DNA of 64,000 bases from a virus, in IMG/VR virus record IMGVR_UViG_3300046167_000888, one strand, 5' to 3'. The first letter of the stretch is position 1. The number at the start of each line of letters is the position of its first letter. A model generated the notes under the pieces. That model saw only the letters and a list, made by a program, of their open reading frames with translations, was not told the DNA's origin and ran no database searches. Of this stretch, positions 32,280 through 60,091 are shown piece by piece. The translations under genes were made by a program, and so were the position numbers.

Positions 32280-34072
32280 ATGGCAAATACATTATCAAAT
32301 ACTGGTATAGTAACCGGACAAACAGTAGAAGCTTTACAAGTTTCTCAATCTGTAGACGCATTTACTGGTGCGAATGACTACGACATTACAATATCTGGTT
32401 CATTAACACTTACAGGATCCCTCTTCCAAACTGGATCCGTTTATTTTAAACAAATAGCACAAGTTCCAGCTACCGCAAGTAATAACTTAGGAACTGTAAT
32501 GATTGACGTAGATGGTCGATTATATTCTGGTTCATCTTCAGTTGGTACCCAAGGTGCTGCTGGAGTAAAAGGTGAAACTGGTTCACAAGGTGCTGATGGA
32601 GTTGATGCAACAGGTACTCAAGGTGCTAATGGTGCTCAAGGTGCTGTAGGATCTACAGGTGCAGGTGGTGCTCAAGGTACAATAGGTGAAAAAGGAAACG
32701 AAGGAACACAAGGTAGTGCAGGTACTGTAGGACCAGCTGGAGAAAAAGGTACATTTGGTGAAAAAGGTGAAGCTGGTGCTCAAGGTACTAGTGGTACAAA
32801 TGGAGAAAAAGGACAACAAGGAGATGCTGGAACAGCAGGTGCTCAAGGTGAATCAGGTGAAAAAGGTGAAACTGGTTCTGCAGGTGGATTAGGTGCTCAA
32901 GGTGCACAAGGTGGTGCTGGAGAAAAAGGAGATAATGGAGCTCAAGGTACTGTAGGTGCAGGAGATAAAGGTCAAAAAGGTGAACAAGGAGATGCTGGTA
33001 ACGCAGGTGCTCAAGGAGCAAATGGTGTAACAGGTTCTCAAGGTACTACTGGAGCAGGAGCTCAAGGTGAAACTGGATTAAAAGGTGAAAAAGGAGAAGC
33101 TGGTGCAGGTGGTGCACAAGGTGAAACTGGAGCAGGAGCTCAAGGAGAAACAGGACAAAAAGGTGAAGCTGGAAGTGGTGGAGCTCAAGGTGCTAATGGT
33201 GCCCAAGGAACAAATGGTGAAAAAGGAGCAATAGGAGAAAAAGGAGAAAATGGAGCAGGTGGTGCACAAGGTGAAACTGGAACAGGTGGTGCTCAAGGAG
33301 CAAATGGTGTAAAAGGTGAACAAGGAGATGCTGGTGGTACAGGTGCTCAAGGTGCTCAAGGTACTACAGGAGTAGGAGAAAAAGGTGGAACAGGAGCACA
33401 AGGAACTGCTGGTACAGGTGGTGGATCAGGTGATGTATATAATCCACAAACAAGATATTTAATTGCTAGTGATGGAGATAATTTCCAATTATATGGAACA
33501 TCTACAAGTAATATGTTCTCAGCAGATTGGACAAGATCAGGAGCAGAATTAACAGTATCACATTCAGCAAATGGTTTAGGTGCTGGTGATAAAGTAGTAG
33601 TTAGAAATTCCAATGTAGATTATCAAGTAACAGATGTTATATCTGCTTCACCAGATGGATTTGTAGTAAATTGTTGCCAACTCGGGTGCCTACATCAGGA
33701 ACAGGATGTCAGTATGGAGCTTTATTTACTGCAGCAGTTACTCAAAATTCAGGTGATGTTACAGCAATAGTAATATCAGCACCAGGAGGAACAAATGGTG
33801 CTTCTCAATTAAATACTTTAAATTTATATGCTAATAACCAAGAAAGTGGTTTAGCAATAACACTACCAGCTGGATTACAAGAAGGTGCCGGTGGGTATAA
33901 TGATAAACAAGATATTAATCTAGTATCATTAGACGCAAAAGTATTTGATGGTACAGGAGTATCAGGAGCATTAACTCCAACAGCAACATATAATTTAGGT
34001 GCTAACTTTAATAGAATAGATGTAAGTAATATTGATAACTTTTCACCAGTTAATTTATCAATGAGGTTTTAA
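32280..34072 (+). CDS. Collagen-like fibre protein A (frameshift(s) near 33670-33715)
   Basis: About 295 aa of Gly-X-Y (GAQ/GEK/GET/GAG) followed by a beta-rich C-terminal domain continued in ORF 33671-34072. Confidence 0.8.
32543..33425 (+). repeat. Collagen Gly-X-Y coding repeat A
   Basis: 9-nt periodic GGN-NNN-NNN repeats. Confidence 0.9.
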
Positions 34073-37297: not shown

Positions 37298-40200
37298 ATG
37301 GCAAATTGGAGAGAAATCATTATCAGTGGATCAGACGCTGAATTAAATAAATTAAATGTAGATTCATCATTAACAGCAAGCGGACTTATATACCCTGCTG
37401 CTGATGGAAGTAATACTCAAGTTTTACAAACAGATGGATCTGGTAATCTTTCTTTTGCTGATAAAGACTCAGGACCTCAAGGTACTACAGGTGCACAAGG
37501 TGCTCAAGGTCTTGATGGTGATTTAGGTTCAAAAGGTGATATAGGGGAAAAAGGTATTAATGGTGAAAAAGGAGAACAAGGACCAACGGGTGCTCAAGGA
37601 ACAAATGGAGCACAAGGTGTACAAGGTGAAGAAGGACAAAAAGGAGAAGGTGGTGCACAAGGAACTATAGGTGAAAAAGGTGCTCAAGGTACAACAGGAG
37701 GACCAGGTGTAGTTGGACCTAAAGGAGAAAAAGGAGATATAGGATCACAAGGTGTAAATGGAGCACAAGGAGCAGATGGAGCACAAGGTGAAACAGGTGT
37801 TCAAGGAAATGATGGTTCATTTGGAGGTGCTACATTTGATTATACCTTTTCTACTGATACAGCAGGAGGAAATGATCCAGGTCAAGGTATAGTTGAATTA
37901 AATTCTACACAACAAAATACAGCAGATGAAATTTATATTGATGCTACCGATGATAACGGTGTAAGTATTAATTCTTTCTTAGCAACTATTAAAGCGTCAA
38001 GTTCAACAATAAAAGGACATATTCGTATATCTAATAGAATTGATGCAACACAATTTTTATTGTTTCAAATCACAGAATTAACCGTTCAAAACACAGATCA
38101 ATGGTGGGTAATTGACGTAACAAATCAAGCATCAAGCGCACAATCTCCATTTACAAATTCAGAAGATGTAGTATGTTCTTTCTTAGTAACTGGTGATCAA
38201 GGATCTCAAGGTGCTACAGGAGGTGGAGGAGCACAAGGAGCAAATGGTGCTCAAGGTGCTAATGGTAATACAGGTGATAAAGGAGATAAAGGACAAAAAG
38301 GTAGTCAAGGTGCTGTTGGACCTATAGGACCTAAAGGTGCTCAAGGTATTGATGGACCTCAAGGTAACAAAGGATCACAAGGTGAAACAGGTGTAAAAGG
38401 AGACGGAGGAGCACAAGGTGCTAATGGAGCACAAGGTACAATAGGTGAAAAAGGAATTAATGGTGAAAAAGGTGATATTGGAGCACAAGGTGAAACTGGA
38501 TTAAAAGGTGAAGAAGGTGCTCAAGGAACAGACGGTGTTCAAGGTACTGATGGTCAAAAAGGAGCACAAGGTGAAACTGGGTTAAAAGGAGATAATGGAG
38601 ATAAAGGTGCACAAGGTGAAACTGGTTTAAAAGGTGATATTGGACCTCAAGGAGAAACTGGTTTAAAAGGAGATGATGGTGCTCAAGGAGAAACTGGAGA
38701 AAAAGGAGACATTGGAGCTCAAGGAGAATCAGGCGCTAAAGGAGATGGTGGAGCTCAAGGTACTATAGGTGCTCAAGGAACAGATGGTCAAATAGGTGCT
38801 CAAGGTGAAACTGGTGAGAAAGGTGATAATGGTGCCCAAGGAGAAACAGGACAAAAAGGTGCCCAAGGAGAAACAGGATCTCAAGGTACTACAGGTACAA
38901 AAGGAGATGATGGAGCACAGGGCGAAACTGGAGAAAAAGGAGATACTGGAGAAAAAGGAGATATTGGAGCTCAAGGAGTACAAGGAGAAGATGGTCAAAA
39001 AGGTGTTCAAGGTGAAGATGGTCAAAAAGGTGCCCAAGGAGAAACAGGACAAAAAGGATCACAAGGTGAAACTGGAGAAAAAGGAGATACTGGAGAAAAA
39101 GGAGATATTGGAGCTCAAGGAGAAACTGGATTAAAAGGAGAACCTGGAGCACAAGGCGAAACAGGAGCACAAGGTGAAACAGGAACACAAGGAACAGACG
39201 GTGCACAAGGAACTGATGGTGCTCAGGGTACAGATGGAGCACAAGGAACAAATGGTGCCCAAGGTACTGATGGTCAAAAAGGAGCACAAGGCGAAACTGG
39301 TGAAAAAGGTGGTGATGGCGCTCAAGGAGAAACAGGACAAAAAGGTGCCCAAGGAGAAACAGGACAAAAAGGTGCCCAAGGAGAAACAGGACAGAAAGGA
39401 GCACAAGGTGAAACTGGATTAAAAGGTGAAGAAGGTGCTCAAGGTACAGATGGTAACTTTGGTGGTAATTCATTTGATTATACTTTTAGTACTAGCACTG
39501 GTACAGGTGATCCAGGAAGGGGTATATTTAATTTTACAGGATCAGCTAGCCAAAGAACAGCAGCTCAAGGTATTATAGATGATGAAGATGATGCTGGTAA
39601 TGATATATCAGCTACTTTACAAACAATATCTAGTGTATCCTCAGCAATTAAAGGACATATTAGAGTATCAAATAGAACTGATTCACTTCAATTTTTAACA
39701 TTTGCAATTACTGATTTAACTGATAATACAGGTTATTGGAGTTTAAATTTAACAAATGAAGCATATTCAGCTGATAATCCTTTTAGTGATGATGAAGATA
39801 TTTTAATATCATTTACAACTGTAGGTGATAAAGGAGATAAAGGTCAAAAAGGAGAAGTTGGTGTTCAAGGTGAAACTGGTGAGAAAGGTGCTCAAGGCGA
39901 GACTGGAAGTCAAGGTACAACTGGTGAAAAAGGTGCTAAAGGAGATACTTTAGAAAAAGGACAAAAAGGTGCACAAGGACAAACTGGTGCTAAAGGAGAT
40001 ACACTTGAAAAAGGTCAAAAAGGTGCTCAAGGTGAAACTGGAGAAAAAGGAGCACAAGGTGAAACTGGACAGAAAGGTGCCCAAGGAGAAACTGGTACAA
40101 AAGGTGCTCAAGGAGAAGATGGTGTAAAAGGAGCTCAAGGAGAAACTGGAGAAAAAGGTACTAAAGGTGATACCTTAGAAAAAGGTGCTCAAGGTGCAAC

Positions 40201-42371
40201 AGGACAAAAAGGTACTAAAGGTGATACTTTAGAAAAAGGACAAAAAGGTGCACAAGGTGAAACTGGAGAAAAAGGAGCACAAGGTGAAACAGGACAGAAA
40301 GGAGCACAAGGTGAAACTGGTACAAAAGGTGCCTCAAGGAGAAGATGGTGTAAAAGGAGCACAAGGAGAAGATGGTGTAAAAGGTGCTCAAGGAGAAACT
40401 GGAGAAAATGCTCCATTACAAGGTAATGTAGACAATAATCTAGTTACTATGACTGGTGGGACAGCATTATCAGGTTCAGCCAAATTTACCTATGATGGTA
40501 TAGATACTGTTTTAGATGGTACTAGTGGAGGAGGTCATTTTATAACTAAAACTCCATCACAATATAGTGCAGTTTCTGAATATGGATTAGGACATGAAGT
40601 ATTTTCTGCAAATTTAGATAGCGGTTTAATTGCTACATTTAGTAGTTCTTTTGCTACATCAGATAATGTACCAATAATTCAAATGGTAGATAAATCTACT
40701 GGTGGTACAGGAACTAATGTTGGTACATTTAGATTTAATAAAGACACTGGTCATTTTATATTAACACCTAGTGGTTCTGGTAAAACAACTTTCCTTTTAC
40801 TTACAGGTAGTTTATCTGTTTCACAATCTGTATTTTTCCCAGGAGTTGCTGAAAATACTAATAACCTTAAAACTTTAATGATAGACCCTACTTCGGGTAA
40901 ATTAGGATATACAGGTTCATATGGTGGAGGTGGAGGTGGTACTCCAATACAAGGAAACGTTAATAATAACGTATTAACAGCTACAGGAACAACATCTATA
41001 TCAGGTTCAGCTAAATTTACTTATGATGGAGCAGGTGATGTTCACTTAGAAGGTAAATTACAAATTGACCAACAAACTATAACTATAGCTGGAGGTAATG
41101 TTTCATGGAATGTAAATAATGGCTCAAATGCTACTGTTACATTAGGATCAGGTACTAATACATTAGCAATGTCAAATTGGGAAACAGGTGATACTGGTGT
41201 ATTAGTTGTTAAACAAGATGGAACTGGAGGAAGAACATTAGATATTGATTTAAGTGGTAATACTGTTTATTTAGGTAATACTTCATATACACCTTCAACA
41301 GCTGCTAATGCGGTTGATGTATTAGGTTGGTATTATGATGGTTCAAAATATTATGTAACAATAGGTTACGGTGATTCATCAACAGTAGGAGCTAAAGGTG
41401 CTCCAGGAGATTCAGGAGCTCAAGGTGCAGCAGGACCAAAAGGGGTTACAGGACCTCAAGGTGATGATGGTGCTCAAGGATTAGCAGGACCAATTGGTAA
41501 TCAAGGAAATACAGGTCCACAAGGTGCAACAGGACCTCAAGGCTTATTAGGACCAATAGGAAACATTGGACCAATTGGTAATACTGGACCTCAAGGTGCT
41601 GATGGAAATATAGGACCAATAGGAAATATAGGACCTATAGGAAACATTGGACCAATTGGTAATACTGGACCTCAAGGTGCAGACGGTAATATTGGACCAA
41701 TAGGTAATATAGGACCAATAGGAAATACAGGTCCTCAAGGTGCAGATGGAGATAAAGGACCAGCTGGTGATGCAGGACCTCAAGGTGCAGACGGTGGTAT
41801 TGGACCAATTGGTAATACAGGACCACAAGGTGCAACAGGAACACAAGGTGCAGTAGGTGGATCAGGAGCTGAATTTACAGTAACAGGAACAACCACAGAT
41901 GGTGTTGTTACTTTTGATTCAGCAAATGCTTTAACTACTGAAGCAAATATGACATTTGATGGTACTACAGCATATATTAATGGTGCTTTAGGTGTAGGAA
42001 CAGATAATCCAACAACTGTAGGTTTAATAGAAGCTACTAATGATGTTGTAGCATATTACTCATCAGATGAAAGATTAAAAGAAAATATTAAACCTATTCC
42101 ATGGGCATTAGATAAATTAATGAAAATAAATGGTGTAACATTTGATTGGAAACCATTAACTGAAGAACAAAAAATACATATTCATGGACATGAAGGGCAT
42201 GATGTAGGTGTAATAGCTCAAGAAATAGAAAAAGTATTACCTGAAGTTGTAACTACAAGAGATAATGGATATAAAGCTGTTAAATATGAAAAAATAGTTG
42301 CTCTATTAATTGAAGCTATTAAAGAACAACAATCAGAAATAGATCAATTAAAAGATAAAATTAATGGCTAA
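37298..42371 (+). CDS. Collagen-like fibre protein B (~1690 aa) with C-terminal Peptidase_S74 chaperone; +1 frameshift at ~40332
   Basis: Four Gly-X-Y blocks, two globular inserts, SSDERLKENI...GVIAQEIEKVLPEVV...AVKYEKIVALLIEAIKE. Confidence 0.85.
37472..41865 (+). repeat. Collagen Gly-X-Y coding repeats B (four blocks: ~37472-37812, 38192-39450, 39824-40410, 41388-41865)
   Basis: GAQ/GET/GEK/GQK/GPI/GNI triplets. Confidence 0.9.
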
Positions 42372-43629
42372 TCTTAATTTTTTCAGAATAATGGCCGGTA
42401 ACGGTTCTAATGTTAGTTCTCAAGATATTCCTTGTAATGCTGGAAGTATTAATTTTGATGGAGGACCAGGTATATTTTATGCTACCGCTGTTGTATTAGG
42501 AACTGGTATAGGCCCTATAACTGCATCATTTGAAGCTCGAAATGTTCCAGATGGATTTAGATTAGTATGGAGCGGATCTACAGTAGCAAATTCTTTATTT
42601 GTAGGAGATCGATTAGACACAGCAAGTTTATATAATGGATATACAGGGTCAATAAGTAATGTAACTTCTTTAACTCGAAAAAATTGGAACCAACAAGCAG
42701 ATACTTTTGTAAATGCTTCAGCAGAAAGTGTAACTTATACTAGTGCTTCATTCCCTCCATTTCCTGGCAATCCTTTCACAAAAACAAGAGGAAATACATC
42801 TACAGTTGTAGGTGAAAGAGTTAATGGTCAAGGAAACCATGGGGCACAAAAAGGCGTACTTAATGCTTTTCCCCAATTTTCATCTTCATGTACAAATGGA
42901 CAAGTTAAATTATGTTTTTTTAAACATACAACTGAACCAACAGAATTTGAACTAATAATTGATGGTCCAGATGGTGGTACACTTTGGGATTTACTTAGTT
43001 TAACTTGCCCAGGTAATGATACTTCACTCCATTCTTCTTCAATTATGGATAAAGATGGTGATATAGTTGAAATATACCATACATCACCATCATTTGACTT
43101 AGATGTAGGAATGACATTATATGAAAATAGTGCATTAACTACTAAATTTATATCAAGTGGGACTTATAGTACTAGTTCATTTTGGGGTAGTGATAATTCT
43201 ATGTTAGTATCAGGTAGTACTATATTAGGAACAGCATATCCTTTTAATGGAGGTAGTGGTATATGCTTTAAATCCGCTTTAAATACAGGATATTCCTATA
43301 TTACATTAGCTGATGATGGAGTAATTACTGCTAGAAGTTGTACTACAACATCATTCCCATTAGCTGATGGTTTAACAGAATTCTATGTAACAGATCAGGC
43401 GAGTAAACTTCCTTTCGCATGTCAGCAACCAATTACAACAACACGTTTCCACGATGGTTCAGGATTAATACCTGTTGTAGGTGATATAGTGTATACTGAT
43501 AGTGGAGGAACTACAGTATTAGCCAATTCAAAAAGAGGAGCTTCTTCTTTTAATTCAGGTAATTCAATTTATGGTTTTGAAACTGATAGTAATGGAGATG
43601 TTACCGATACGCAAACCTGTATACCATAA
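42364..43629 (+). CDS. Cys-containing fibre tip/receptor-binding-like protein
   Basis: Follows the S74 fibre gene; two C-terminal repeats of type H....VG..(L/V)Y..S..TT, each closed by Cys. Confidence 0.55.
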   Translation: MANLNFFRIMAGNGSNVSSQDIPCNAGSINFDGGPGIFYATAVVLGTGIGPITASFEARNVPDGFRLVWSGSTVANSLFVGDRLDTASLYNGYTGSISNVTSLTRKNWNQQADTFVNASAESVTYTSASFPPFPGNPFTKTRGNTSTVVGERVNGQGNHGAQKGVLNAFPQFSSSCTNGQVKLCFFKHTTEPTEFELIIDGPDGGTLWDLLSLTCPGNDTSLHSSSIMDKDGDIVEIYHTSPSFDLDVGMTLYENSALTTKFISSGTYSTSSFWGSDNSMLVSGSTILGTAYPFNGGSGICFKSALNTGYSYITLADDGVITARSCTTTSFPLADGLTEFYVTDQASKLPFACQQPITTTRFHDGSGLIPVVGDIVYTDSGGTTVLANSKRGASSFNSGNSIYGFETDSNGDVTDTQTCIP

Positions 43630-43631
43630 TT

Positions 43632-44150
43632 TTGGAGTTTTTAGATTATCAAGGTAAAGAATTTAATGTTTTTAAAAACAATGGGGTTACAATCATGCAA
43701 TTTAAAAATAATGTTTTTTTAAATGATGATAAAATATACACTAAATTATTTTTAGGGGAATGTGATAAATGTAATCCATTTTATAAAGATTTTTTTAATA
43801 ATATTAAATTTGATACAGTATTAGTAGTAGGATTAGGACTTGGTTTAATACCTCAAGAGTTAATTGAAATATACAAATGTAGTAAAGTTGATTGTCTAGA
43901 AATAAGTCAAGAAATGATTGATTATACTCATAACTCAGGTCATTTAAATAAAAATATAAATCTTATTCAGGGTGATGTTTATAAGTACTCTACTTCTGAT
44001 ATGTATGATTTGATTATAATTGATACTATTTGGCAAAAACATAATATGAGTGATGATCAATGGAACATATTAGTAAAAAAATATAAACCAAATTTAAATC
44101 CTAAAGGCGCAATCTTCGCTCCAGTAAAACAAAAGTATTTTTCAATATAA
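43632..44150 (+). CDS. SAM-dependent methyltransferase (spermidine-synthase-like fold)
   Basis: VLVVGLGLG, CLEIS, IQGD, YDLIIID and LNPKG motifs. Confidence 0.8.
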   Translation: MEFLDYQGKEFNVFKNNGVTIMQFKNNVFLNDDKIYTKLFLGECDKCNPFYKDFFNNIKFDTVLVVGLGLGLIPQELIEIYKCSKVDCLEISQEMIDYTHNSGHLNKNINLIQGDVYKYSTSDMYDLIIIDTIWQKHNMSDDQWNILVKKYKPNLNPKGAIFAPVKQKYFSI

Positions 44151-44260
44151 CTTGTTTTCTCCTTATTTTTTCCATACATTGTTCATATGTATGACTATAT
44201 TATAGGCCATAACGGAAGTGGGCTCAAGGAGTAACCAACCATAATTAAAAAGATTTTAAA

Positions 44261-47200
44261 ATGCCAAATTGGAAAAAAGTAATAGTTTCAGGAAGTGATG
44301 CCTCCCTAAACAATATCTCAAGTGAAAATATAACAGTAGAATCTACTGTTACTTCTTTAAATGTTAATACCACAAACATTTCAGCATCAAAATATTTTGT
44401 AGAACCAACAGGTTCAGGTTCAGTACCTGCAAAATCTTACCAAATTCCATTTGTTGATACATCTTCAGCAGACAATTATGGCGGCTTATATAAAGATAAT
44501 CAATCCAAATTAGAGTGGACACCAGCAGGTGAATTAACTGTAATTGGAAATATTGTTGCTGGTGGAACAGGATTCATAACTGGTAGTAATGTTAATGCAT
44601 CAACAAATGTAACAGTAGGTGGTCAAACCAATACTGCTAATTTAAGAATTAACTCAATCCCAACAGGTTCAGATCAAAATAAAATTGTAGTTGTTGGAGA
44701 TGATGGTAGTACATTTTTTAGAACAAATTTATCATTAACAGGTGCTCAAGGAGCAACTGGACAACAAGGTTTAACAGGTGCAATAGGACCAAAAGGAGCA
44801 CAAGGTGATAAAGGTGCAATAGGACCACTTGGTCCTCAAGGTAACGCAGGTAATGATGGTGATGATGGAGCACAAGGTACAACAGGACAAAAAGGTGTAA
44901 CAGGACCATTAGGACCTCAAGGTAATAAAGGTGATGTAGGACCTCTTGGACCACAAGGTAATCAAGGTGTTCAAGGTACAACCGGACAAAAAGGTGTAAC
45001 TGGACCACTTGGACCTCAAGGAAATCAAGGTAATGCAGGTAATGATGGAGCTCAAGGTACAACTGGAGCAACAGGACCTTTAGGACCACAAGGAAATCAA
45101 GGAAATACAGGACCACAAGGTAATGTAGGACCAACTGGTGATGATGGTGAAAAAGGTGATACTGGTGCTCAAGGCACAACAGGACCACTTGGACCTCAAG
45201 GTAATCAAGGTAATCAAGGTAACGTTGGACCAACAGGAGCACAAGGTGCAGTAGGAGCACAAGGAGATACAGGACCAACAGGTGCAACCGGATTACAAGG
45301 AACAACAGGTGCATTAGGACCAATTGGACCTCAAGGTAACCAAGGTAACCAAGGTGTACAAGGTACAAATGGAGAAAAAGGAGCAACAGGACCATTAGGA
45401 CCTCAAGGTAATCAAGGTATTCAAGGACAAAAAGGTGAAACAGGACCACTTGGACCACAAGGTAATGCAGGTAATGATGGAGCTCAAGGTACAACCGGAG
45501 CAACAGGACCTTTAGGACCACTTGGACCACAAGGTAATCAAGGTAACCAAGGTGTACAAGGTGCAACAGGACCACAAGGAACTAAAGGACAAAAAGGTGA
45601 AGTAGGAGCTAAAGGTGATACAGGACCTCAAGGATCTAAAGGTTCAACAGGACCATTAGGACCTCAAGGTAACCAAGGTGCACAAGGTACAACAGGTACA
45701 ACAGGACCTCTTGGACCACAAGGTAACGTAGGACCAGCAGGTACAGATGGAGATAAAGGTGCAATAGGACCAACAGGTGCTCAAGGAAATCAAGGTAACC
45801 AAGGTATACAAGGTACAACTGGACAAAAAGGTGCAACTGGACCTTTAGGACCACAAGGTAATCAGGGTAACCAAGGTATACAAGGTATAACAGGTGCAAC
45901 AGGACCTCTTGGACCACAAGGTAATCAAGGAAATACAGGACCAACAGGTGCTCAAGGAACAACAGGTGCATTAGGACCAATTGGACCTCAAGGTAACGTT
46001 GGACCAACAGGAGCACAAGGTAATGCAGGTAATGATGGTGAAAAAGGTTTAAAAGGTGAAGTAGGGGCACAAGGTAATAAAGGTGCAACAGGACCATTAG
46101 GACCTCAAGGTAATATAGGTAATGTAGGACCTCAAGGTGAAAAAGGTGCAACAGGACCTCAAGGAAATACAGGTGCTCAAGGTAATCAAGGTAACCAAGG
46201 TAACGTTGGTGTACAAGGTACCACAGGTGCTCAAGGTAACGTAGGACCTGAAGGACAAAAAGGACCACAGGGTACAACAGGTACAACAGGACCACAAGGT
46301 AACCAAGGTAATAAAGGTGCTACGGGACCATTAGGACCATTAGGACCTCAAGGTAATCAAGGAAATACAGGACCACAAGGTAATAAAGGACAAAAAGGTG
46401 AAATAGGTGCTCAAGGTACAGATGGTAACTTCGGTGGTAACTCATTCGATTATACATTTGATACAAGTACAACAGCAGGAGATCCAGGCCAAGGTAAAAT
46501 AAGATTATCATCAACAAATCAAAATACTTCACTTGAAGGATATATTGATGCAACAGATGATGATGGGAAACGATATTCAATCAACACTTGAAACATTAGA
46601 TAGTGTTACTTCAGCTATTAAAGGTCACATTAGAATCTCAAATAGAACAGATGCAACACAATTCTTAACATTCGCAATTACAGATCTTCAAGATCAAGGT
46701 GATTGGTGGCAGTTAGATTTAACTAATGAAGCAAGTTCAGCAACATCACCATTCTCAAATAACGAAGATATTATTTGTTCATTTGTAGCAGTAGGTGATA
46801 AAGGAGATAAAGGACAAAAAGGACAAACTGGAGCAGTAGGACCAACAGGACCACAAGGTAACGTAGGACCAACAGGACCACAAGGAAATAAAGGACAAAA
46901 AGGTGAAGTAGGAGCTCAAGGTAACGTAGGACCTCAAGGTAACGTAGGTGCTCAAGGAGCTACTGGTTCAACTGGTGCTCAAGGAAATAAAGGTAGCTTA
47001 GGACCACAAGGTAATGTTGGTGCTCAAGGAGCTACTGGAGCAATTGGACCACAAGGTAATACAGGTGCACAGGGTAATGTTGGACCAACAGGACCTCAAG
47101 GAAATAAAGGTGCAACAGGACCTCAAGGTAATACAGGTGCTCAAGGTGCAACAGGACCTCAAGGTAACCAAGGTAATCAAGGTAATGTAGGACCAACAGG

Positions 47201-48711
47201 ACCACAGGGTGAAAAAGGTGCGATAGGACCACAAGGTAACTGTAGGACCTAAAGGACCACAAGGTGGACAAGGTAATACAGGTGCACAAGGTGCTACTGG
47301 AGCTGTAGGACCAATTGGACCACAAGGTAACGTTGGACCTCAAGGAAATAAAGGACAAAAAGGTGCTGCAGGTACAAATGGAAATAAAGGAGCTCAAGGA
47401 GCTACAGGATCAACAGGACCACAAGGTAATGTAGGACCAACAGGACCTCAAGGTAACGTAGGACCTAAAGGACCACAAGGTGGACAAGGTAATACAGGAC
47501 CTACAGGTGCACAGGGTGCAACTGGAGCAATTGGACCTCAGGGTAATACAGGACCACAAGGTGGAATTGGACCTCAAGGTAATAAGGGACAAAAAGGACA
47601 AACAGGTGCACAAGGTAATGTAGGACCACAAGGTAACGTTGGACCAACTGGTGCACAAGGTGCTACAGGATCAACAGGACCTCAAGGTAACGTAGGACCA
47701 ACAGGACCTAAAGGACCACAAGGTAATGTAGGACCAGCAGGTAATAATGGAAATAAAGGAGCTCAAGGAGCTACAGGATCAACAGGACCACAAGGTGGTA
47801 CAGGACCACAAGGTGGAATTGGACCTCAAGGTAATAAAGGACAGAAAGGTCAAACAGGAGCACAAGGTAACGTAGGACCTGTAGGACCAACTGGAGCACA
47901 AGGTGCGACAGGACCTCAAGGTAACGTTGGACCTCAAGGTAACGTTGGACCACAAGGTAACAAGGGTCAAAAAGGACAAACTGGTGCTCAAGGTAACGTA
48001 GGACCTGTAGGACCTCAGGGTAATACAGGACAAAAAGGTCAAAAAGGTCAAACAGGTGCTCAAGGTAACGTTGGACCAATTGGACCAATTGGAAATGTAG
48101 GACCAACTGGACCTAAAGGACCACAAGGTAACGTAGGACCTCAAGGTAATAAAGGACAAAAAGGTGCCACTGGTGGACAAGGTAACGTAGGACCTGTAGG
48201 ACCTGTAGGACCAACAGGACCTCAAGGTAATAAGGGACAAAAAGGTCAAAAAGGACAAACAGGTGGACAAGGTAACGTAGGACCTGTAGGACCAGTAGGA
48301 CCAGTAGGACCATCAGGAGGATTTACTACAAACTCAAATGCTCAAGTAAATAGTTTAGGTGTTGGAGTTTCAGCCTCAGGTACAGCAGGTACAATTAGAG
48401 CTACAAATGATATTATTTCATATTACTCATCAGATAATAGATTAAAAGATGTAAAAGGTTTAGTTGAAAATGCATTAGAAAAAGTAATACAATTAAATGG
48501 TGTACAATTCGATTGGATAGCTAAAGAAGGTATACATGAAAATACAGGACACGATATAGGAATTATAGCACAAGAAATTGAAGCATTCTTCCCAGAAATT
48601 GTAGTAACAAGACCAAATGGATATAAAGCGGTTAAATATGAAAAATTAGTAGCAGTACTTATTGAAGCAATAAAAGATTTGAACGAAAAAATAGAAAAAT
48701 TAAATAAATAA
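44261..48711 (+). CDS. Collagen-like fibre protein C (~1480 aa) with C-terminal Peptidase_S74 chaperone; +1 frameshifts at ~46566 and ~47241
   Basis: Two long Gly-X-Y blocks, one globular insert, SSDNRLKD...GIIAQEIE...[18 protein letters not shown]; the last segment lacks its own ATG, so it is absent from the ORF track. Confidence 0.85.
44741..48316 (+). repeat. Collagen Gly-X-Y coding repeats C (~44741-46424 and ~46794-48316)
   Basis: [18 protein letters not shown] triplets. Confidence 0.9.
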
Positions 48712-48714
48712 AAA

Positions 48715-49257
48715 ATGGGTTTACTAATAACAGGGTCTTTTAAAGACATGAACGAAGCAACATATGATAGCTTATATTGTAGAATTGACCATTATCAACT
48801 AATAAAATCATTAGGATATGTGGCTACTACAATTGGATATTATGTTTCTAAAGAAGCATCCGAACCGATGTTTCCTACATATCAAGAAGATTATCATGAC
48901 TCAGACGCTAGTGGTTTTGTAGCAGGTGTAATTAATACTTCAACTGAAACTGAATTTGCAGCTGATCATTATATTGAATTTCCGTTAACACAAAGTGAAC
49001 AAGTTGTAGTAACTACATATTCATCTTCTTTTGAAGATAGATTAGTTGATTATATTGATTATGATGATGACGGAAATGAAGTCACAAAACAAAGAAATCA
49101 AAAAATTGAAATTATTACAACGGGTAGTGAAGAAGTTACTAAATCTAGAATTAATATGGATTTAATAACAGGAAGCGCTTATGAATATGCCTATAATCAG
49201 TTAAAATCTCGTTTAATAGAAACATACGGTGACAATAATGTTAATGATTTAATATAA
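48715..49257 (+). CDS. Fibre-associated small protein
   Basis: MGLLITGS start and YEYAYNQLK end; follows the fibre gene. Confidence 0.65.
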   Translation: MGLLITGSFKDMNEATYDSLYCRIDHYQLIKSLGYVATTIGYYVSKEASEPMFPTYQEDYHDSDASGFVAGVINTSTETEFAADHYIEFPLTQSEQVVVTTYSSSFEDRLVDYIDYDDDGNEVTKQRNQKIEIITTGSEEVTKSRINMDLITGSAYEYAYNQLKSRLIETYGDNNVNDLI

Positions 49258-49264
49258 ACAACAT

Positions 49265-50083
49265 ATGTATTTTGGATCTTTTGGAAATAATAATTTAAAA
49301 TTAAGAGGAAACAATTCAGGTACTTTAATGCCTTGTGATTGTCAAGGATTTTTTAACAATGCCTTTGTTGCTTGTTTTTCTTGGCCATATTGGAACAATA
49401 CTAACATTAATCAAGGATGTAGTAGTTGGACAGCTTATTTATTACCTTGTGTAGGTAATGCAATAGTAAATGTAGGAACAGCGCCATCATCAACTAATGC
49501 TCAATCTTCTCGTGTACGAAATCAAGATAGACCTTTTGGAATTAATTTACATGGTGTAACAAATGCTGAAAAAGTTTCATTTACAAATTGGAACCCTATA
49601 ACCACTGTTGGTACTCTTCAAGGATATCAAAATGTAGGATTATCTAATAGATCTAATTTTGTTGGTATTAATGTTATTATGACTTATGGGTATACTTTTG
49701 GAGGTTGGAGAGCAAATACCGCTTCGGGTGGTTTAATTACTTTGTCTCAAGCTACTAATTTATATACCACAGGTACTTATGGAAGTACTGATTTTAGAGA
49801 TTTAAATGATGTATTTTCATCAGTTTTCTCTGATAGAAGATTAAAAGAAAATATTAGATGTATAGGTAAATCAAAATCAGGAATTAACATTTATACTTGG
49901 AACTATAAAAATCCAGAAAAATTTGGATATGGTACATACCAAGGAGTAATGGCTCAAGAAGTACCTCATGCTACAGTACAACATCCTAATGGATATTTAG
50001 CAGTAAATTATTCTAAAACAGACGTTACATTTAAAAAGTTATATGAAAGCAATTTGGGTAATAGAAAACGTCAAGAAGGATAA
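49265..50083 (+). CDS. Cys-containing protein with C-terminal Peptidase_S74-like domain
   Basis: FSDRRLKENI..IGKSKSGINIYTWNY...GVMAQEV...GYLAVNYS. Confidence 0.8.
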   Translation: MYFGSFGNNNLKLRGNNSGTLMPCDCQGFFNNAFVACFSWPYWNNTNINQGCSSWTAYLLPCVGNAIVNVGTAPSSTNAQSSRVRNQDRPFGINLHGVTNAEKVSFTNWNPITTVGTLQGYQNVGLSNRSNFVGINVIMTYGYTFGGWRANTASGGLITLSQATNLYTTGTYGSTDFRDLNDVFSSVFSDRRLKENIRCIGKSKSGINIYTWNYKNPEKFGYGTYQGVMAQEVPHATVQHPNGYLAVNYSKTDVTFKKLYESNLGNRKRQEG

Positions 50084-50921
50084 TTCCTTTTATGATGAAT
50101 TTAAATTAGTTATGTTATTTGCTTCCGTAAGTTTATGGAAGAAATATCATCCTGAACATACTACAATTCTATATTGTGATGAAATGACAGAAAAATATCT
50201 GTCTAATCTTAATGTATTTCCATTATGGGATCAAATTAAACATTTATCTTATCCTGAAAAAATTAATCGAGAAATATTTTGGTCAAGTTGTAAAACAAAA
50301 ATTATAAGTGAAGCAACGGAACCTATAGTAGTTATAGATCATGATTTTTTAATATTCACTAATATAGATGAACATTTAAAAGAAAAAGTATTATATACTC
50401 ATGAAGAACAAGCTTATCCTTGGTACCCAGCTAAAGAAGATAGGTATTGTGCTCGTTTATCTAAACCTTCCCCTTATGAATTAGATTTAGCAGCTAATGT
50501 ATCATTATTTTATTTACCTGATCCTAAATTTGCTAAAATGTATGGTGAATGGGTGTTACAAAATCACGAAGAATTTACTATAATGGATTTTGAAGGTATG
50601 GATCCTAATTATATGATTTATTCAGAACAACTAATGTTAAAACAACTATTAGTTAGGGATAATATCCCACATAATACGTTAACAATCAACGTATTTGACA
50701 ATAAAAAACAAATATTTACTGATGCAATTAATTTATATGGTATTTGGAATCGTGAAGAATCTCCATTACATTATAGACACTATGGGTTTGATAAACGTCT
50801 TTTACAAGATGATAAAGACGAATTATCTTATTTATATAGATGTATAAATGCAAGTAAAAAAATTAACGTTAAGTTATTAAAAGAAAAAATTCATGAAAGC
50901 AATTCACGTAAATTGGACTAA
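50043..50921 (+). CDS. GT-A-fold nucleotide-sugar transferase-like protein (DUF6734-like), paralog 1
   Basis: LWKK..LYCD, FWSSCK, VIDHD (DxD), SEQ motifs. Confidence 0.55.
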   Translation: MKAIWVIENVKKDNSFYDEFKLVMLFASVSLWKKYHPEHTTILYCDEMTEKYLSNLNVFPLWDQIKHLSYPEKINREIFWSSCKTKIISEATEPIVVIDHDFLIFTNIDEHLKEKVLYTHEEQAYPWYPAKEDRYCARLSKPSPYELDLAANVSLFYLPDPKFAKMYGEWVLQNHEEFTIMDFEGMDPNYMIYSEQLMLKQLLVRDNIPHNTLTINVFDNKKQIFTDAINLYGIWNREESPLHYRHYGFDKRLLQDDKDELSYLYRCINASKKINVKLLKEKIHESNSRKLD

Positions 50922-51882
50922 ACCTTTCTTTAATAGAGATAGGTTAAGAGGTCATGGATTTGAATCTACAAAACAATTAAAATCTAACACATACGATCAA
51001 CTTGACCATCAAATATTATACACAATGCTATCAGCAGTGTATTGGAAAAAATATAATGGCCCAATTAAATTGTATACTGATTCAGTTGGTGCTTCATTTT
51101 ATCAAAGATTTGGTTTATTAGATTTATATGATGAAATAGATATAAAATATTTAAATAATTACTCTAAATCAGACATAGATGCTGCTTATTTTTGGACTAG
51201 TGGTAAAATAAAATGTTTAGCCCATCAAACTGAACCTTTTGTTTTTTTAGATCAAGATATGATTGTTAAACAACCACTACCTGAATGGGTAAGAACAAAT
51301 GATTTAACAATTGCTCATTGGGAAATAGGTAGAGGTTATTATTATTTTGATAGAGAAAAATGGGAAAGAGAAATTACTCATATACCATGGATTGAAAATT
51401 ACAACTCAGATGATTGGTCACCTAATACATCATTTCTGTGTTTTAATAACATGGAATTACTTAAAGAATATCATAATTGGCATAAGTATTTAGTAAAAAC
51501 AGAACCATATTATAATATACCAGAATGGTATTGGTTATTAACAGACCAAGGTATTTTAGGTCATATTATTAGAGAAAACGATTATAATATAAATACGTTA
51601 ACTCAAAAAATATCATTATCACATCATAATACAATTGATACAGCAACTAGATATAAAGGTAAAGCTGAAAAATGGTATAATGTAGTTGACCCAGATTATG
51701 ATGAAATAAATGATGAACCAAAAGAAGTTAGATTTGAGCATGTTTGGTTAGATAAAATTAATATTCAAAATTTACAAACAGATAGATGGTTTAAAGAATT
51801 AGTTGAAGATTTTGATTGTAGTAAATATCTTACAGATATAAGATGGAATAAACATTGGAAAAATTACCATGAAAATAATTAG
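50893..51882 (+). CDS. GT-A-fold nucleotide-sugar transferase-like protein (DUF6734-like), paralog 2
   Basis: YWKK..LYTD, FWTSGK, FLDQD (DxD), NTSF, TDQ motifs. Confidence 0.55.
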   Translation: MKAIHVNWTKPFFNRDRLRGHGFESTKQLKSNTYDQLDHQILYTMLSAVYWKKYNGPIKLYTDSVGASFYQRFGLLDLYDEIDIKYLNNYSKSDIDAAYFWTSGKIKCLAHQTEPFVFLDQDMIVKQPLPEWVRTNDLTIAHWEIGRGYYYFDREKWEREITHIPWIENYNSDDWSPNTSFLCFNNMELLKEYHNWHKYLVKTEPYYNIPEWYWLLTDQGILGHIIRENDYNINTLTQKISLSHHNTIDTATRYKGKAEKWYNVVDPDYDEINDEPKEVRFEHVWLDKINIQNLQTDRWFKELVEDFDCSKYLTDIRWNKHWKNYHENN

Positions 51883-52615
51883 AGTACTTTGGGGTAATAA
51901 TATAAACCATGAGATACCTCCATGTCCATTATTGGAAAATGAAGTTGTTTATGTATGGGGGGATGAAAACAATCAAATGATGATTGATAGAGGATGGGAA
52001 ACTAGACCTTATAATACTAATTTTATATTTGAAGGTAAATATAATGCATTTGGTAAAAAATTACTTGCATTAAAAGAAGCAATGGAAGAATTTGGTGAGG
52101 TATTATTACTAGATTGGGATTGTTATTTAATAAAACCTTTAGATGAAAAATTTTATAACACGTTAAAAACTAAACCGGTACAAATTCCTCTTTACATTCA
52201 ACATAAAGATACTAAAGATGCTATATTAGAAATTTTACCGCCAAACCAAAGTATTGAATTACAAAAAGAATTAGATATATTAGGAAAAGGATTTAAAAAA
52301 TATGGTTGGGAATGGGAAGATGGATATGTAGCTCCTAATTTTGGTTTTGTATATTGTAGAGATAAAGATTTTGCTCAAAAATTATATGATATAGCAATTA
52401 ATCATAATTTACAAACTGTAGTAGATGAGTTTGCTACATTAATACAGGTTGATTGTACATTAGAAGAATATATAGAAAAATATTTACCTACTGTATTAAG
52501 AGGTTCTAGCAATGATAAATTTATTTTTGATGCTAGATTACATAAATTAGGAAAAAAATTCAATGATTACATTGATACTATAACAAAAATAACACCTTAT
52601 TTTAATCATGTCTAA
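51869..52615 (+). CDS. Putative GT-A-like transferase, paralog 3
   Basis: GKKL..L, LLDWDC (DxD), PNFGFVY, DE motifs. Confidence 0.5.
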   Translation: MKIIRVLWGNNINHEIPPCPLLENEVVYVWGDENNQMMIDRGWETRPYNTNFIFEGKYNAFGKKLLALKEAMEEFGEVLLLDWDCYLIKPLDEKFYNTLKTKPVQIPLYIQHKDTKDAILEILPPNQSIELQKELDILGKGFKKYGWEWEDGYVAPNFGFVYCRDKDFAQKLYDIAINHNLQTVVDEFATLIQVDCTLEEYIEKYLPTVLRGSSNDKFIFDARLHKLGKKFNDYIDTITKITPYFNHV

Positions 52616-53396
52616 ATTAAAATTTATAAGAACTTGGTGGGGGGACCAACAAGATAAATGGTTAGAAGTCCCCAAAATACCTTTAATATCATCTGAAGAT
52701 GAAATTGTATATGTTTGGGGTAAGGAAAATTTAAATAAATTTAAAGAAAGAGGATACAATTGTGTCTTAATGAAAGAAGATGAATTTAGTGGAAAAAGTA
52801 TTTATGGAAAAAAATTAACCGTTTTAAATAAAGCATTAAAAGAATGGGGTGAAGTATTAATGTTAGATTGGGATTGTTATTTATCATCACCTCTAGATGA
52901 TAATTTTTATACAATGTTATCTAAAAAACCTATACAAATACCATTATATGCTCATCATAAAGAACCTGATGTAGCATTATTAGAAGCAATTCCAGATGAC
53001 CATCCAATTCTTCAATCAGAAAAAACATATATTGAGTTAATAACTAATTTAGAATCAATAGCATTAGAAATTCCTAAATATCATTGGGAATGGAATGAAA
53101 ATTTAATTATTCCTAATTTTGGTTGTGTTTATTCTAGAGATATAAATTTAGGAGAAGATTTAATTAAAATAGCTAAAGAAAATAATATAAAAGGATTAGT
53201 AGAAGAATTTGCAATGTGGAAATACGCTAATTGTACATTAGAAGAATACATTGAACATTACCATCCTGATTATGTATTAGGCGTATCAGATGATAGATTA
53301 AAAGACCAAGAATATAGTATTAGTATAATACAAAAAGAATTTAATAAAGAAATAAAAACTAAAATTAATTTAAAACAATATTTTAATCATGTATAA
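52608..53396 (+). CDS. Putative GT-A-like transferase, paralog 4 (tandem duplicate of 51869)
   Basis: VYVWG, GKKL, MLDWDC, PNFG, CTLEEYIE and YFNHV shared with the upstream gene. Confidence 0.5.
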   Translation: MSKLKFIRTWWGDQQDKWLEVPKIPLISSEDEIVYVWGKENLNKFKERGYNCVLMKEDEFSGKSIYGKKLTVLNKALKEWGEVLMLDWDCYLSSPLDDNFYTMLSKKPIQIPLYAHHKEPDVALLEAIPDDHPILQSEKTYIELITNLESIALEIPKYHWEWNENLIIPNFGCVYSRDINLGEDLIKIAKENNIKGLVEEFAMWKYANCTLEEYIEHYHPDYVLGVSDDRLKDQEYSISIIQKEFNKEIKTKINLKQYFNHV

Positions 53397-53982
53397 AGTA
53401 AAAGTAATATCACTTAAAAGACGTGAAGATAGACGTGCTCATATGGCTCATATGTTTCAACATATAAATTTTGAATTTGTTGACGCTTTAGATGGGCAAA
53501 CATATAATTTAACAGAATTTGATAAAGAATTTATTGAAGGTAATGATTATGAAAAACATGGAATACACATCCCATCTTTAGTTTGTGCTAATTATACACA
53601 TTTAAATTTGTTAGATGAATGTTCAAAACAAGATCAACCTTATTTTATATTTGAAGATGATGTTGAAATGACTGGAGCTAAAGCTCCTGATTTATATTTT
53701 GAAGCATTAGCTTCAGTTGAAGATTTAGATGCTTTTTGGTTTATTCCTAATGAACCAAGTATTGCCGCTTATATAGTATGGCCAAAGGGTGCTAAAAAAA
53801 TGATTGATTATGTAAATAATGTTTCTAAATTAAAAAGAGGTTTAGATTGGGCATTTTGGGATTTAAGAAAATCTAAAGATTTCCGTGCGGATCAATCAAA
53901 AGAAGCGTATTTTAAACATGACCCTGGAAAAGACTCTGATATCACAACAATAGAAAACTATGATATTTCATCCGACAAATAA
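53389..53982 (+). CDS. Glycosyltransferase family 25
   Basis: VISLKRREDRR, FVDALDG, CANYTH, IFEDD, AYIV..GAKK motifs. Confidence 0.85.
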   Translation: MYKVKVISLKRREDRRAHMAHMFQHINFEFVDALDGQTYNLTEFDKEFIEGNDYEKHGIHIPSLVCANYTHLNLLDECSKQDQPYFIFEDDVEMTGAKAPDLYFEALASVEDLDAFWFIPNEPSIAAYIVWPKGAKKMIDYVNNVSKLKRGLDWAFWDLRKSKDFRADQSKEAYFKHDPGKDSDITTIENYDISSDK

Positions 53983-54664
53983 GGAAAATATATTTCATTT
54001 AGCTCCTATACCAGTTTATAAAAGGAGATATGTAGATTGTCCTGTTACTAAAAAAATAAATAAACTTGGGTTTAAAATTTTAACTCAAGAACAAAAAAGA
54101 ATGGGTCAAGAATTACCTGGTCAATATGATAAACATAGACAAGATAATTATGAAATTAATTATGATTATCAAGAAGAATGGGTTGAAGATCATGAATTAC
54201 AACCTATAGGAAGTAGATTTTTTGTTGAACCTAATAACTTTTTAACTGAATGGGGATACAAACCAGAAAAAAACACAGGTAATAAAGATGTAGATGTTAT
54301 TACTCGAAGAATAAAAGCGGGTTTTAAAGAACTAACAGGTAAAGATGGAGAAGTAACTGAAAGTTGGGCTCAATATTATGAACCAACTGCAGGTAGAGGA
54401 CATAATGCTCATAATCATAATAGATGGCAACATAAAGAAGAAAAACCTTTAATGTACTCTGGTGGTTATTATTTAGATGATGGTGATCCTTTAAAAGATC
54501 ATCCTTACAGTGGTGCTTTTGCTTTTCATATAGGAGGAAAAAAACATTATATTAGACCTAGAGAAGGGATGTTATTAATTTGGCCACATGATATTATTCA
54601 CTCAGTAGAACCATTTTATGGTAATAGACATAGAGCAGTAATTAATTTTAATATACAAGCATGA
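53960..54664 (+). CDS. 2OG-Fe(II) oxygenase (TIGR02466-like)
   Basis: SW, HNH, SGGYY, PREGMLLIWP..HSV.P, R.VINFN motifs. Confidence 0.8.
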   Translation: MIFHPTNKENIFHLAPIPVYKRRYVDCPVTKKINKLGFKILTQEQKRMGQELPGQYDKHRQDNYEINYDYQEEWVEDHELQPIGSRFFVEPNNFLTEWGYKPEKNTGNKDVDVITRRIKAGFKELTGKDGEVTESWAQYYEPTAGRGHNAHNHNRWQHKEEKPLMYSGGYYLDDGDPLKDHPYSGAFAFHIGGKKHYIRPREGMLLIWPHDIIHSVEPFYGNRHRAVINFNIQA

Positions 54665-55509
54665 ATATAATTTTTGATATACCTGGTGGAATAGGTAAAG
54701 TATTAATGGCAACTGCTATTGTAAAAGGACTTAAAGCCAAATACCCCACAGATAAAATAATTACAGTTTCAGGTCATCCTTTAGTATTTAAAAATAACCC
54801 TAATGTTCATGCTTCATTTCAATTAGCGGATAGAGATAGAGTTAGGGAACAATATATAAAAGACCAAGAATGTAAAATTATAGCTAGAGAACCTTATTAT
54901 GAGCAAAATCATATTTTTCAAAAGGAACATTTACTAGAAACATGGTTTAAATTATTAGATTTAGAATATTGGGGACAACAACCAGATATTTATTTAGATG
55001 ATCAAGAAATACAATCATATAAAAAATTATATAAATCAGATAAACCTATAATGGTTATCCAACCTCATGGGGGTGCTTCACCCGAAGTACCTTATAACTG
55101 GGTAAGAGATATTCCACCTAAAATAACTAAAAAATTAATAGAAAAGTATAAAGATACTCATACTATCTATTTAATAAAAAGCCCAAAACAACCTAAATAT
55201 AAAGATGTAAAAGAAGAAATAGGATCTATTAGAAGAGTAGCTATACTATTAAGTATGGCTGAAAAAAGATATCTTATTGATAGTTTTGCTCAACATTTAG
55301 CAATGGCTTTAAGAAAACCATCTACCGTATTTTGGATAGGAACTAATCCAAAGGTATTTGGGTATGATATACATAATAACATTAAAGCAAACCCATTCCA
55401 ATTAGAAACAAATAGTGGGTTGTATCATGGAAGAAATTTAACAGAAGTCATAGAAAGCTTGCCTTATGTAAATGAGGATTGTATATTCGATGTCGAAAAA
55501 ATTATATAA
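54661..55509 (+). CDS. GT-B glycosyltransferase (GT9-like)
   Basis: GGIGK, NNPNV, IQPHGG, IDSFAQHLAMAL.KPS.V.W motifs. Confidence 0.75.
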   Translation: MNIIFDIPGGIGKVLMATAIVKGLKAKYPTDKIITVSGHPLVFKNNPNVHASFQLADRDRVREQYIKDQECKIIAREPYYEQNHIFQKEHLLETWFKLLDLEYWGQQPDIYLDDQEIQSYKKLYKSDKPIMVIQPHGGASPEVPYNWVRDIPPKITKKLIEKYKDTHTIYLIKSPKQPKYKDVKEEIGSIRRVAILLSMAEKRYLIDSFAQHLAMALRKPSTVFWIGTNPKVFGYDIHNNIKANPFQLETNSGLYHGRNLTEVIESLPYVNEDCIFDVEKII

Positions 55510-55511
55510 CT

Positions 55512-56109
55512 ATGTTTCAAAGCTATGCATTTGATCAACAAGAAGTTGATTTACAAAATTACTACTATATTCTTAATGGATTTAGTAAAGAAGAATTAAA
55601 TAGAATAGAACAAGATGTTTCTACTTTACCTTTTCAACAAGCAAGTACTGTTGGAGGTGATAGTAAAAAAGTAAGATCATCTAAAGTAAAATGGGTACCT
55701 CATAATAATGATTGGTTTTGGTTATATGAAAAACTATCTGATTATGCTGTAGAAGCTAATTTTGCATTATGGAATTTTGACTTAACATTAATCCCAGAAC
55801 AAATACAATACACTGAATATTATGCTTCAGAACAAGGACATTATGATTGGCACGCTGATATAGGTCCAGGTTTATTATCTAAAAGAAAAGTATCTATTAC
55901 AGTTCAATTATCTGAACCCTGATGAATATGAAGGAGGAGATTTAGAATTATTCCAAGGTGGAAGTATGAGTGGTCCTTTTCCTAAAGCAGAAAGAAGAGC
56001 AGGTTGTGTGTTTATTTTCCCCTCGTTTATGATGCATAGAGTAGCCCCAGTTACAAAAGGTGTAAGAAAATCATTTGTAATATGGTTAGGTGGTCAACAT
56101 TATAAATAA
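55512..56109 (+). CDS. 2OG-Fe(II) oxygenase, prolyl-4-hydroxylase/PKHD-like; +1 frameshift at ~55918
   Basis: YDWHAD, RKVSITVQLS, then EYEGGDL...FPSFMMHRVAPVTKGVRKSFVIW after removing one C. Confidence 0.85.
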
Positions 56110-56112
56110 TGT

Positions 56113-57784: not shown

Positions 57785-57834
57785 TTCAATATGTATTGCC
57801 ATGTTGCGATAATGTCTAATTAAAGCAAATAATT

Positions 57835-58333: not shown

Positions 58334-58338
58334 ACATT

Positions 58339-60044: not shown

Positions 60045-60091
60045 TAACATCCTTTTTAATATGTATAATAAAACAACTAATAAACAATATT

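Follow-up and report, generated by a model that had tools for sequence, protein, structure and literature searches.

Genes at the locus

The window studied here is a stretch of 64,000 nucleotides (nt), the viral record IMGVR_UViG_3300046167_000888 of IMG/VR, and the genes in question are two long collagen-type genes on its plus strand, called B and C (Table 1). By gene content the window covers the part of a large, low-G+C (30%) myovirus genome that encodes baseplate and fibres, and B and C probably encode, as intact genes, two trimeric tail fibres of great length. Judged by its sequence, the phage is an uncultured marine myovirus distantly related to Flavobacterium phage immuto: the baseplate wedge protein encoded at 15410 shows 44% identity to its immuto counterpart and 42% to the one of Microcystis phage Mel-JY01, and synteny and several N-termini agree with immuto as far as its tail fibre and two tailspikes. 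By the relationship to immuto and the G+C content, a marine Bacteroidota is the probable host. The wedge gene, the immuto synteny, and the adjoining fibre genes place the collagen fibres in the fibre module.

Five collagen-rich reading frames on the plus strand in the list of open reading frames (ORFs) merge into the two genes. B is spread over 37298-40426 and 40233-42371, the latter one base out of frame; C is spread over 44261-46591, 46503-47252, and 47227-48711. One extra base can be recognised at each junction. In B (~40334), ggt gcC Tca agg stands where neighbouring repeats have ggt gct caa gga; in C, the first (~46568) lies in gat gat ggG Aaa cga, where the paralogous domain has D-D-x-G-N-D, and the second (~47241) in ggt aaC Tgt agg, where repeats have ggt aac gta gga. 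With one base dropped per junction, B encodes 1690 amino acids (aa) and C 1482 aa, with zero internal stops. Long reverse-strand ORFs within the collagen DNA (e.g. 44718-45575) were taken as by-products of the repeat composition.

Integrity of the two reading frames

The repaired genes were compared with 20 loci of the same phage population from independent seawater assemblies (ENA, JGI, Logan), numbered with the prefix L and found by exact-protein look-up of two flanking genes (the 180-aa and 531-aa ORFs); the same look-up with the 421-aa and 172-aa ORFs gave zero matches. Flanking identity at the frameshift sites in covering assemblies was 99.6-99.9%. Locus L013 (2705-7777) holds an unbroken 1690-aa ORF with 99.76% identity to repaired B across all 1690 residues, and its sole net DNA indel against the window at B is the extra C of the window (~40332-40334), a base missing from all four covering assemblies (L012, L013, L014, and L015). 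At C, L009 is 99.88% identical to the window at the nt level over 5 kb and differs by two indels only, namely both frameshift bases, which are also missing from L002, the second of the two covering assemblies. A further allele of C, unbroken and 1429 aa long, is present in six loci (L003-L008).

Measured against these assemblies, the window carries dozens of further single-base insertions, which break non-collagen genes. About 45 of them cluster at 27568-28232 (window versus L012), so that a reading frame exceeding 1465 aa in L012 is divided in the window between 24923-27586 and 28220-29005; sequence quality in this part of the record seems to be locally poor. Scattered insertions between 30.9 and 34.9 kb split genes that are 344, 355, 596, and 342 aa long in L012, and a single insertion at 55920 lies within a 2-oxoglutarate (2OG) oxygenase gene. 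Between 30106 and 35142 several non-collagen structural genes are split, as is a third collagen gene (32280-34072; 596 aa in L012).

Because independent assemblies lack the extra bases and the window holds many other insertions, the three frameshifts in B and C are, on this sequence comparison, single-base insertion errors of the record, and in nature both genes are unbroken. The first-pass annotation, made from the window itself, had taken B and C to be single long ORFs after repair, as L013, L009, L002, and L003-L008 now bear out. Two doubts that it had raised fall away: that the frameshifts are real and the proteins truncated, the extra bases being missing in every covering assembly, and that the repeat length is an assembly artefact. 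The repeat length is no such artefact, because the window and L013 both give 1690 aa and the DNA repeats are degenerate (60-90% matches between units). Programmed frameshifting was ruled out, the extra bases being missing from near-identical assemblies.

Two alleles of C co-occur in the seawater assemblies (window 44261-46370 versus L003:2840-4950). They are ~50% identical over residues 1-700, which comprise the N-terminal domain and the first collagen block, and 99-100% identical from residue ~705 to the end; because identity switches so sharply just ahead of the node domain, modular exchange of the N-terminal half of C is suggested.

Collagen blocks and predicted length

Pfam assigned Collagen to all five reading-frame pieces (E = 3.5e-105, 3.9e-20, 7.6e-87, 7.6e-25, and 1.8e-49), and both the repeat and the profile of this family (PF01391) were recovered in the blocks of B (120, 426, and 162 residues) and C (567 and 510 residues). 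Counted as runs of at least four triplets, Gly-X-Y residues in B amount to 120 + 426 + 183 + 162, plus a stray run of 15, for a total of 891-906; in C they amount to 567 + 510 = 1077. The earlier counts of about 890 residues in four blocks for B and about 1070 in two blocks for C agree with this recount. Block 3 of B, which spans 195 residues (843-1037), is interrupted at four places by G-D-T-L-E-K-G, with Leu in place of Gly.

Residues at X and Y are rich in Gln, Asn, Thr, and Lys, and Pro is found chiefly at X. The collagen part of B is charged (28 KGD/KGE motifs; ~21% charged residues), that of C polar (GPQ, GNV, GNQ, and GPT triplets), with Pro in 31% of its triplets, mostly at X. The composition of both proteins fits known bacterial collagens and is compatible with a triple helix, and the Gly-X-Y blocks of B and C would be expected to form one. 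Collagen-like side-tail proteins of prophages were found by experiment to form stable triple helices and have separate trimerisation domains (PMC3368898). A heterotrimer of B and C was ruled out, as their block lengths and break points do not correspond.

At 0.286 nm per residue, 906 residues correspond to 259 nm in B and 1077 residues to 308 nm in C, so the collagen parts, if fully extended, would measure ~260 nm and ~310 nm. The first-pass figures of 250-300 nm hold as arithmetic because the Gly-X-Y counts were right; they do not describe one continuous helix, each rod being broken by globular domains.

The longest non-collagen part of B, residues 1038-1363, consists of two units, each starting IQGNVxNN...SGSAKFTYDG, and is a candidate for the receptor-binding part. 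Pfam, NCBIfam, and PHROGs gave zero family matches for it, a search of IMG/VR for close relatives of this globular region found none, and six partial relatives only are known from the searches made. Its single-sequence AlphaFold2 model had a predicted local distance difference test score (pLDDT) of 36.7 and was unusable.

C-terminal chaperone and predicted cleavage

Peptidase_S74 (PF13884) lies at the extreme C-terminus of both proteins, with 67.3 bits (1.5e-18) in B and 51.3 bits (1.4e-13) in C against a Pfam gathering cut-off of 22 bits; the match falls within the last 102 residues of B and the last 93 of C. The Ser(+5)Lys dyad is present as SDERLK in B (Ser1589/Lys1594) and SDNRLK in C (Ser1390/Lys1395), and both score and motif confirm the S-D-x-R-x-K Peptidase_S74 ends recognised at first pass. 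Among solved structures, the S74 domain of B matched 8jov (1e-8), 6f45 (3e-7), and MYRF 7dc3 (4e-4), and its SDERLK was aligned with SDERLK of 8jov and SDRRIK of 6f45, both tail-fibre chaperones.

In T5 pb1, the chaperone trimerises, aids folding of the fibre tip, and then cuts Thr1263-Ser1264 by means of Ser1264 and Lys1269, and an Arg of the adjoining chain ties cleavage to correct folding of the trimer (PMC4690869). Because B and C have the same dyad as T5 pb1, in which the scissile bond precedes Ser, the cut would be expected at YYS|SDxRLK, ahead of the catalytic Ser. This is one residue upstream of the S|D bond proposed at first pass, which the homology to T5 pb1 does not support. The predicted released fragment would be 102 aa in B and 93 aa in C.

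Node domain between collagen blocks

Three copies of a node domain (37832-38191, 39470-39823, and 46442-46793) are 50-62% identical to one another. A profile search of 1.84 billion representatives gave 4690 clusters at E <= 0.001, of which 1906 also passed E <= 1e-10, with up to eight matched stretches in one protein; 49 of the 150 best hits contain 100 or more Gly-X-Y residues. None of 53 members had a Pfam match, NCBIfam gave zero matches, and PHROGs gave a marginal hit only, to a family of unknown function. The AlphaFold2 model, a confident one (pLDDT 95.5), shows beta strands and one helix. Compared with solved structures, Foldseek found nothing at E <= 0.001 and the best VIA-align Z was 6.4, inside the stated noise range of that tool; no known fold could be assigned by either. 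In BFVD the fold was found in 45 viral proteins with template modelling (TM) scores of ~0.5 to 0.94, most carrying an annotation as collagen triple helix repeat proteins; their sources are uncultured Caudovirales, Synechococcus phages, and giant viruses, among them Marseillevirus LCMAC102, Indivirus, and Klosneuvirus. The node domain may thus segment viral collagen rods and keep them in register.

Putative N-terminal adaptor

ORF 35243, B, and C, three consecutive fibre genes, begin with a common motif, M-x-[NT]-W-[KR]-x-[VI]-I-[VI]-S-G-S. Of 390 metagenomic fibre proteins retrieved, 12 open with it, including some that lack collagen, and one S74 fibre that bears it (P0278) is encoded on contigs that also carry sheath and T4 gp13-like genes. 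From this distribution we read the motif as a putative virion-attachment adaptor carrying interchangeable shafts. Other metagenomic S74 fibres with unrelated shafts also open with the motif.

Neighbouring genes

The remaining features are collected in Table 1. The 421-aa ORF that overlaps the end of B is possibly a fibre-associated protein, and the position of the methyltransferase gene at 43632-44150 is conserved in related assemblies. The third S74 protein (49265-50083) is without collagen and has several cysteines close to its N-terminus. Further downstream, a cassette at 50043-57150 includes candidate collagen-modifying enzymes; its GT25 glycosyltransferase matched solved structures weakly, mimivirus R655 (1.3e-3) being the best, followed by human procollagen galactosyltransferase 1 (0.017). 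Against cultured phages, megablast of positions 48700-64000 gave zero matches.

Table 1 Features of the fibre module and adjoining genes. Positions are nt of the window; B and C are the fibre genes; L, comparison locus; S74, Peptidase_S74.
Feature	Position	Strand	Remarks
Collagen protein, 596 aa	32280		Window position equivalent to immuto tail fibre/tailspikes
Non-collagen fibre, 531 aa	35243-36838		Same immuto tail fibre/tailspike-equivalent position as B and C
Fibre gene B, 1690 aa	37298..42371 (37298-40333 + 40335-42371)	+	Spurious base at ~40332-40334 left out
B N-terminal adaptor, residues 1-58	37298..37471	+	Begins MANWREIIISGSDAELNKL; motif common to C and ORF 35243
B collagen block 1, 120 residues	37472..37831	+	
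B node domain 1, ~120 aa	37832..38191	+	Beta strands and one helix; alignment, AlphaFold2 model
B collagen block 2, 426 residues	38192..39469	+	Highly charged; rich in GAQ, GET, GEK, and GDK
B node domain 2	39470..39823	+	Alignment
B collagen block 3, residues 843-1037	39824..40409	+	Four Gly-to-Leu breaks; spurious base (~40334) inside
B non-collagen region, residues 1038-1363 (326 aa)	40410..41387	+	
B collagen block 4, 162 residues	41388..41873	+	Rich in GPI, GNT, and GPQ
B pre-chaperone stalk, residues 1526-1588 (63 aa)	41874..42062	+	Ends NDVVAYYS
B S74 intramolecular chaperone	42063..42371	+	Ser1589 and Lys1594; Pfam 1.5e-18
ORF, 421 aa	42364..43629	+	Overlaps end of B; kept in L003, L004, and L013
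S-adenosylmethionine (SAM)-dependent methyltransferase, 172 aa	43632..44150	+	Between B and C; Pfam Methyltransf_25 9.6e-8
Fibre gene C, 1482 aa	44261..48711 (44261-46567 + 46569-47240 + 47242-48711)	+	Spurious bases at ~46565-46568 and 47240-47241 left out
C N-terminal domain, residues 1-160	44261..44740	+	Opens with adaptor motif
C collagen block 1, 567 uninterrupted Gly-X-Y residues	44741..46441	+	
C node domain, residues 728-844	46442..46793	+	Spurious base (~46568) inside
C collagen block 2, 510 uninterrupted Gly-X-Y residues	46794..48324	+	Spurious base (~47241) inside
C stalk (35 aa) and S74	48325..48711	+	Stalk ends NDIISYYS; Ser1390 (nt 48430), Lys1395; Pfam 1.4e-13
ORF, 180 aa	48715..49257	+	Begins 4 nt past C; same sequence in 19 metagenomic contigs
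Third S74 protein, 272 aa	49265-50083		Pfam 2e-6; SDRRLK at residue 189; same immuto-equivalent position as B and C
DUF6734	50893		Downstream cassette
GT25 glycosyltransferase	53389		Pfam 1.3e-16
2OG-Fe(II) oxygenase	53960		Downstream cassette
Second 2OG-Fe(II) oxygenase	~55479-56110		Insertion at 55920 breaks window copy; intact at L002:10413-11009

Discussion

B and C are very long Gly-X-Y fibres with an S74 chaperone at one end and a shared putative adaptor at the other, and their genes stand with those of the tail. Several points weigh against taking them as long trimeric tail fibres. C has no globular domain before S74 as a candidate for its receptor-binding part; block 3 of B is broken by Leu for Gly four times; and Pro is found in only ~10% of the triplets of B. 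The triple helix, trimerisation, and cleavage are predictions from sequence, and attachment at the tail rather than at the neck or head is argued from synteny and the common motif.

Maturation by downstream enzymes is an unlikely but not negligible alternative. Under it, the Gly-X-Y blocks would be unstable unless modified, and the downstream 2OG-Fe(II) oxygenases and GT25 would hydroxylate and glycosylate Lys or Pro of the repeats. The Y position is the site of hydroxylysine in animal collagen, and Lys occupies it in 66 triplets of B and 51 of C; GT25 and two such oxygenases are encoded 4.7-7.4 kb downstream of C, the family matches of the oxygenases being PF13640 (1.3e-12), phrog_61, and phrog_81. 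Yet 2OG oxygenases are widespread auxiliary genes in marine phages and are classed in PHROGs as auxiliary metabolic genes, the nearest solved oxygenases are of PKHD/PiuC type and not collagen hydroxylases, the matches of GT25 in PDB are weak, and three other long collagen-S74 loci are without such genes on the contigs read. Unmodified collagens of bacteria and prophages are, moreover, stable (PMC3368898). Still more doubtful is that the locus encodes a phage counterpart of procollagen biosynthesis as a whole, with ~300 nm rods, an S74 trimeriser, registering nodes, and its own oxygenases and GT25 acting on Gly-X-Lys/Pro.

About equally doubtful is a position at the neck or head, where B and C would serve as whiskers or head fibres, capturing hosts as long flexible filaments and raising encounter before the tail fibres bind. 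The predicted ~260-310 nm would be unusually long for a tail fibre, C is without an evident distal receptor-binding domain, and other fibre-like genes (24923, 32280, 35243, and 49265) could encode the primary receptor-binding proteins. The genes nevertheless follow the baseplate genes, at the position of the immuto tail fibre and tailspikes, and the N-terminal adaptor is common to the adjoining non-collagen fibre gene. Pfam lists Collagen and S74 only on B and C, with no fibritin-type domain, and Pfam and PHROGs scans of B, C, and their neighbours returned no fibritin family such as marks whiskers of the T4 type. The first-pass preference for whiskers over ordinary fibres is for these reasons of position and shared adaptor unsupported.

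Highly improbable is that the frameshifts are real and leave B and C as pseudogenes or split them into separate products (for example a 1042-aa collagen lacking the chaperone, and a 707-aa C-terminal protein): the window as given does hold the three extra bases, and restart codons exist in the new frames (e.g. GTG 40248, TTG 46533), but the extra base is missing from four of four (B) and two of two (C) covering assemblies, dozens of other insertions in the window break non-collagen genes, and no slippery sequence points to programmed frameshifting.

Read as tail fibres, B and C may assemble as follows. Each would be synthesised as a precursor, and the S74 domain with the short stalk before it would align three chains in register. 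The triple helix would then zip toward the N-terminus through successive Gly-X-Y blocks, spaced by the 120-aa globular nodes and, in B, by the 326-aa globular region. Cleavage by the Ser-Lys dyad just ahead of the catalytic Ser would follow correct folding of the stalk and free the 93-102-aa chaperone. Mature chains of ~1588 aa (B) and ~1389 aa (C) would be joined to the tail by the adaptor M-x-N-W-K/R-x-[VI]-I-[VI]-S-G-S. Gene integrity, domain composition, catalytic motif, and genomic position are directly observed at the locus; the triple helix, folding direction, cleavage, attachment site, and physical length are inferred.

Comparison with known systems

The architecture of B and C is already known, and only its length is exceptional. 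As cited in PMC4621102, 'Bacteriophage collagen' was described by Smith et al. in 1998, since when phage collagen has been known. The collagen-like tail fibres of phages and prophages, such as EPclA and EPclB of the E. coli O157:H7 prophage, resemble B and C in having Gly-X-Y shafts, flanking non-collagen trimerising domains, and genes in a fibre module; EPclA trimerises by a coiled coil and a PfC domain (PMC3368898), whereas B and C carry S74 instead.

Fibres with S74/CIMCD (K1F endosialidase, T5 pb1, phi29/GA-1 appendages) share with B and C the C-terminal PF13884, Ser(+5)Lys, and a terminal helical segment (PMC4690869), and by analogy the S74 domain of B and C would be expected to trimerise, to aid folding, and then to remove itself. 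The solved S74 examples, however, chaperone triple beta-helix or beta-prism tips, whereas in B and C the collagen helix lies a stalk of 35-63 aa away, and C lacks a globular domain for receptor binding at its distal end.

Fibres of polinton-like viruses are reported to combine collagen repeats with an S74 domain at the end (PMC12220804), and metagenomic and viral fibres with Collagen and Peptidase_S74 (polinton-like viruses; uncultured Caudovirales and giant viruses in BFVD) have the same architecture as B and C; many of them share the node domain between collagen blocks. Proteins of this kind of 1400-2100 aa are not rare in metagenomes. In another uncultured phage, contig L024 (1237-13617) carries two collagen-S74 genes in tandem, of 1682 and 1708 aa; a 312-aa ORF and a radical SAM gene come next. 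Collagen-like matches to the 1429-aa allele of C were found in 991 of 50,697 records of cultured phages; zero had at least 80% cover, those listed covering 31-49%. Among the S74 proteins sampled, which are best hits and not a census, the next largest Gly-X-Y total is 963 (P0274, 2080 aa), against 1077 in C, and the next longest uninterrupted block 492 (P0322), against 567 and 510 in C; longer blocks in the sample (~1020 residues) belong to animal fibrillar collagens only.

With vertebrate fibrillar procollagen B and C have in common ~1000 potential triple-helix residues (300 nm) and a C-terminal trimeriser removed, in B and C by prediction, after assembly. A separate proteinase removes the C-propeptide of procollagen, whereas S74 is predicted to remove itself, and the rods of B and C are broken by globular domains, unlike procollagen. 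The retrieved animal collagens carry the COLFI C-propeptide (PF01410); none was found on the pieces of B and C, on which Pfam lists Collagen and Peptidase_S74 only. The comparison with procollagen drawn at first pass is therefore a fair functional analogy, a C-terminal trimeriser later removed, and not homology, there being no COLFI and S74 being expected to cleave itself. Vertebrate fibrillar collagens are much longer than the collagen domain of EPclA (PMC3368898).

Significance

This kind of protein is otherwise well known, and the understanding of phage fibres is unchanged by B and C. The unbroken 1690-aa and 1429-aa ORFs in independent assemblies are validated full-length sequences, suited to the study of how a very long triple helix free of hydroxyproline comes into register and folds, starting from an S74 chaperone, and the node domain is a concrete target for structural work on the segmentation of viral collagens. 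In Gly-X-Y length, collagen-type fibres of phages can equal the fibrillar collagens of animals.

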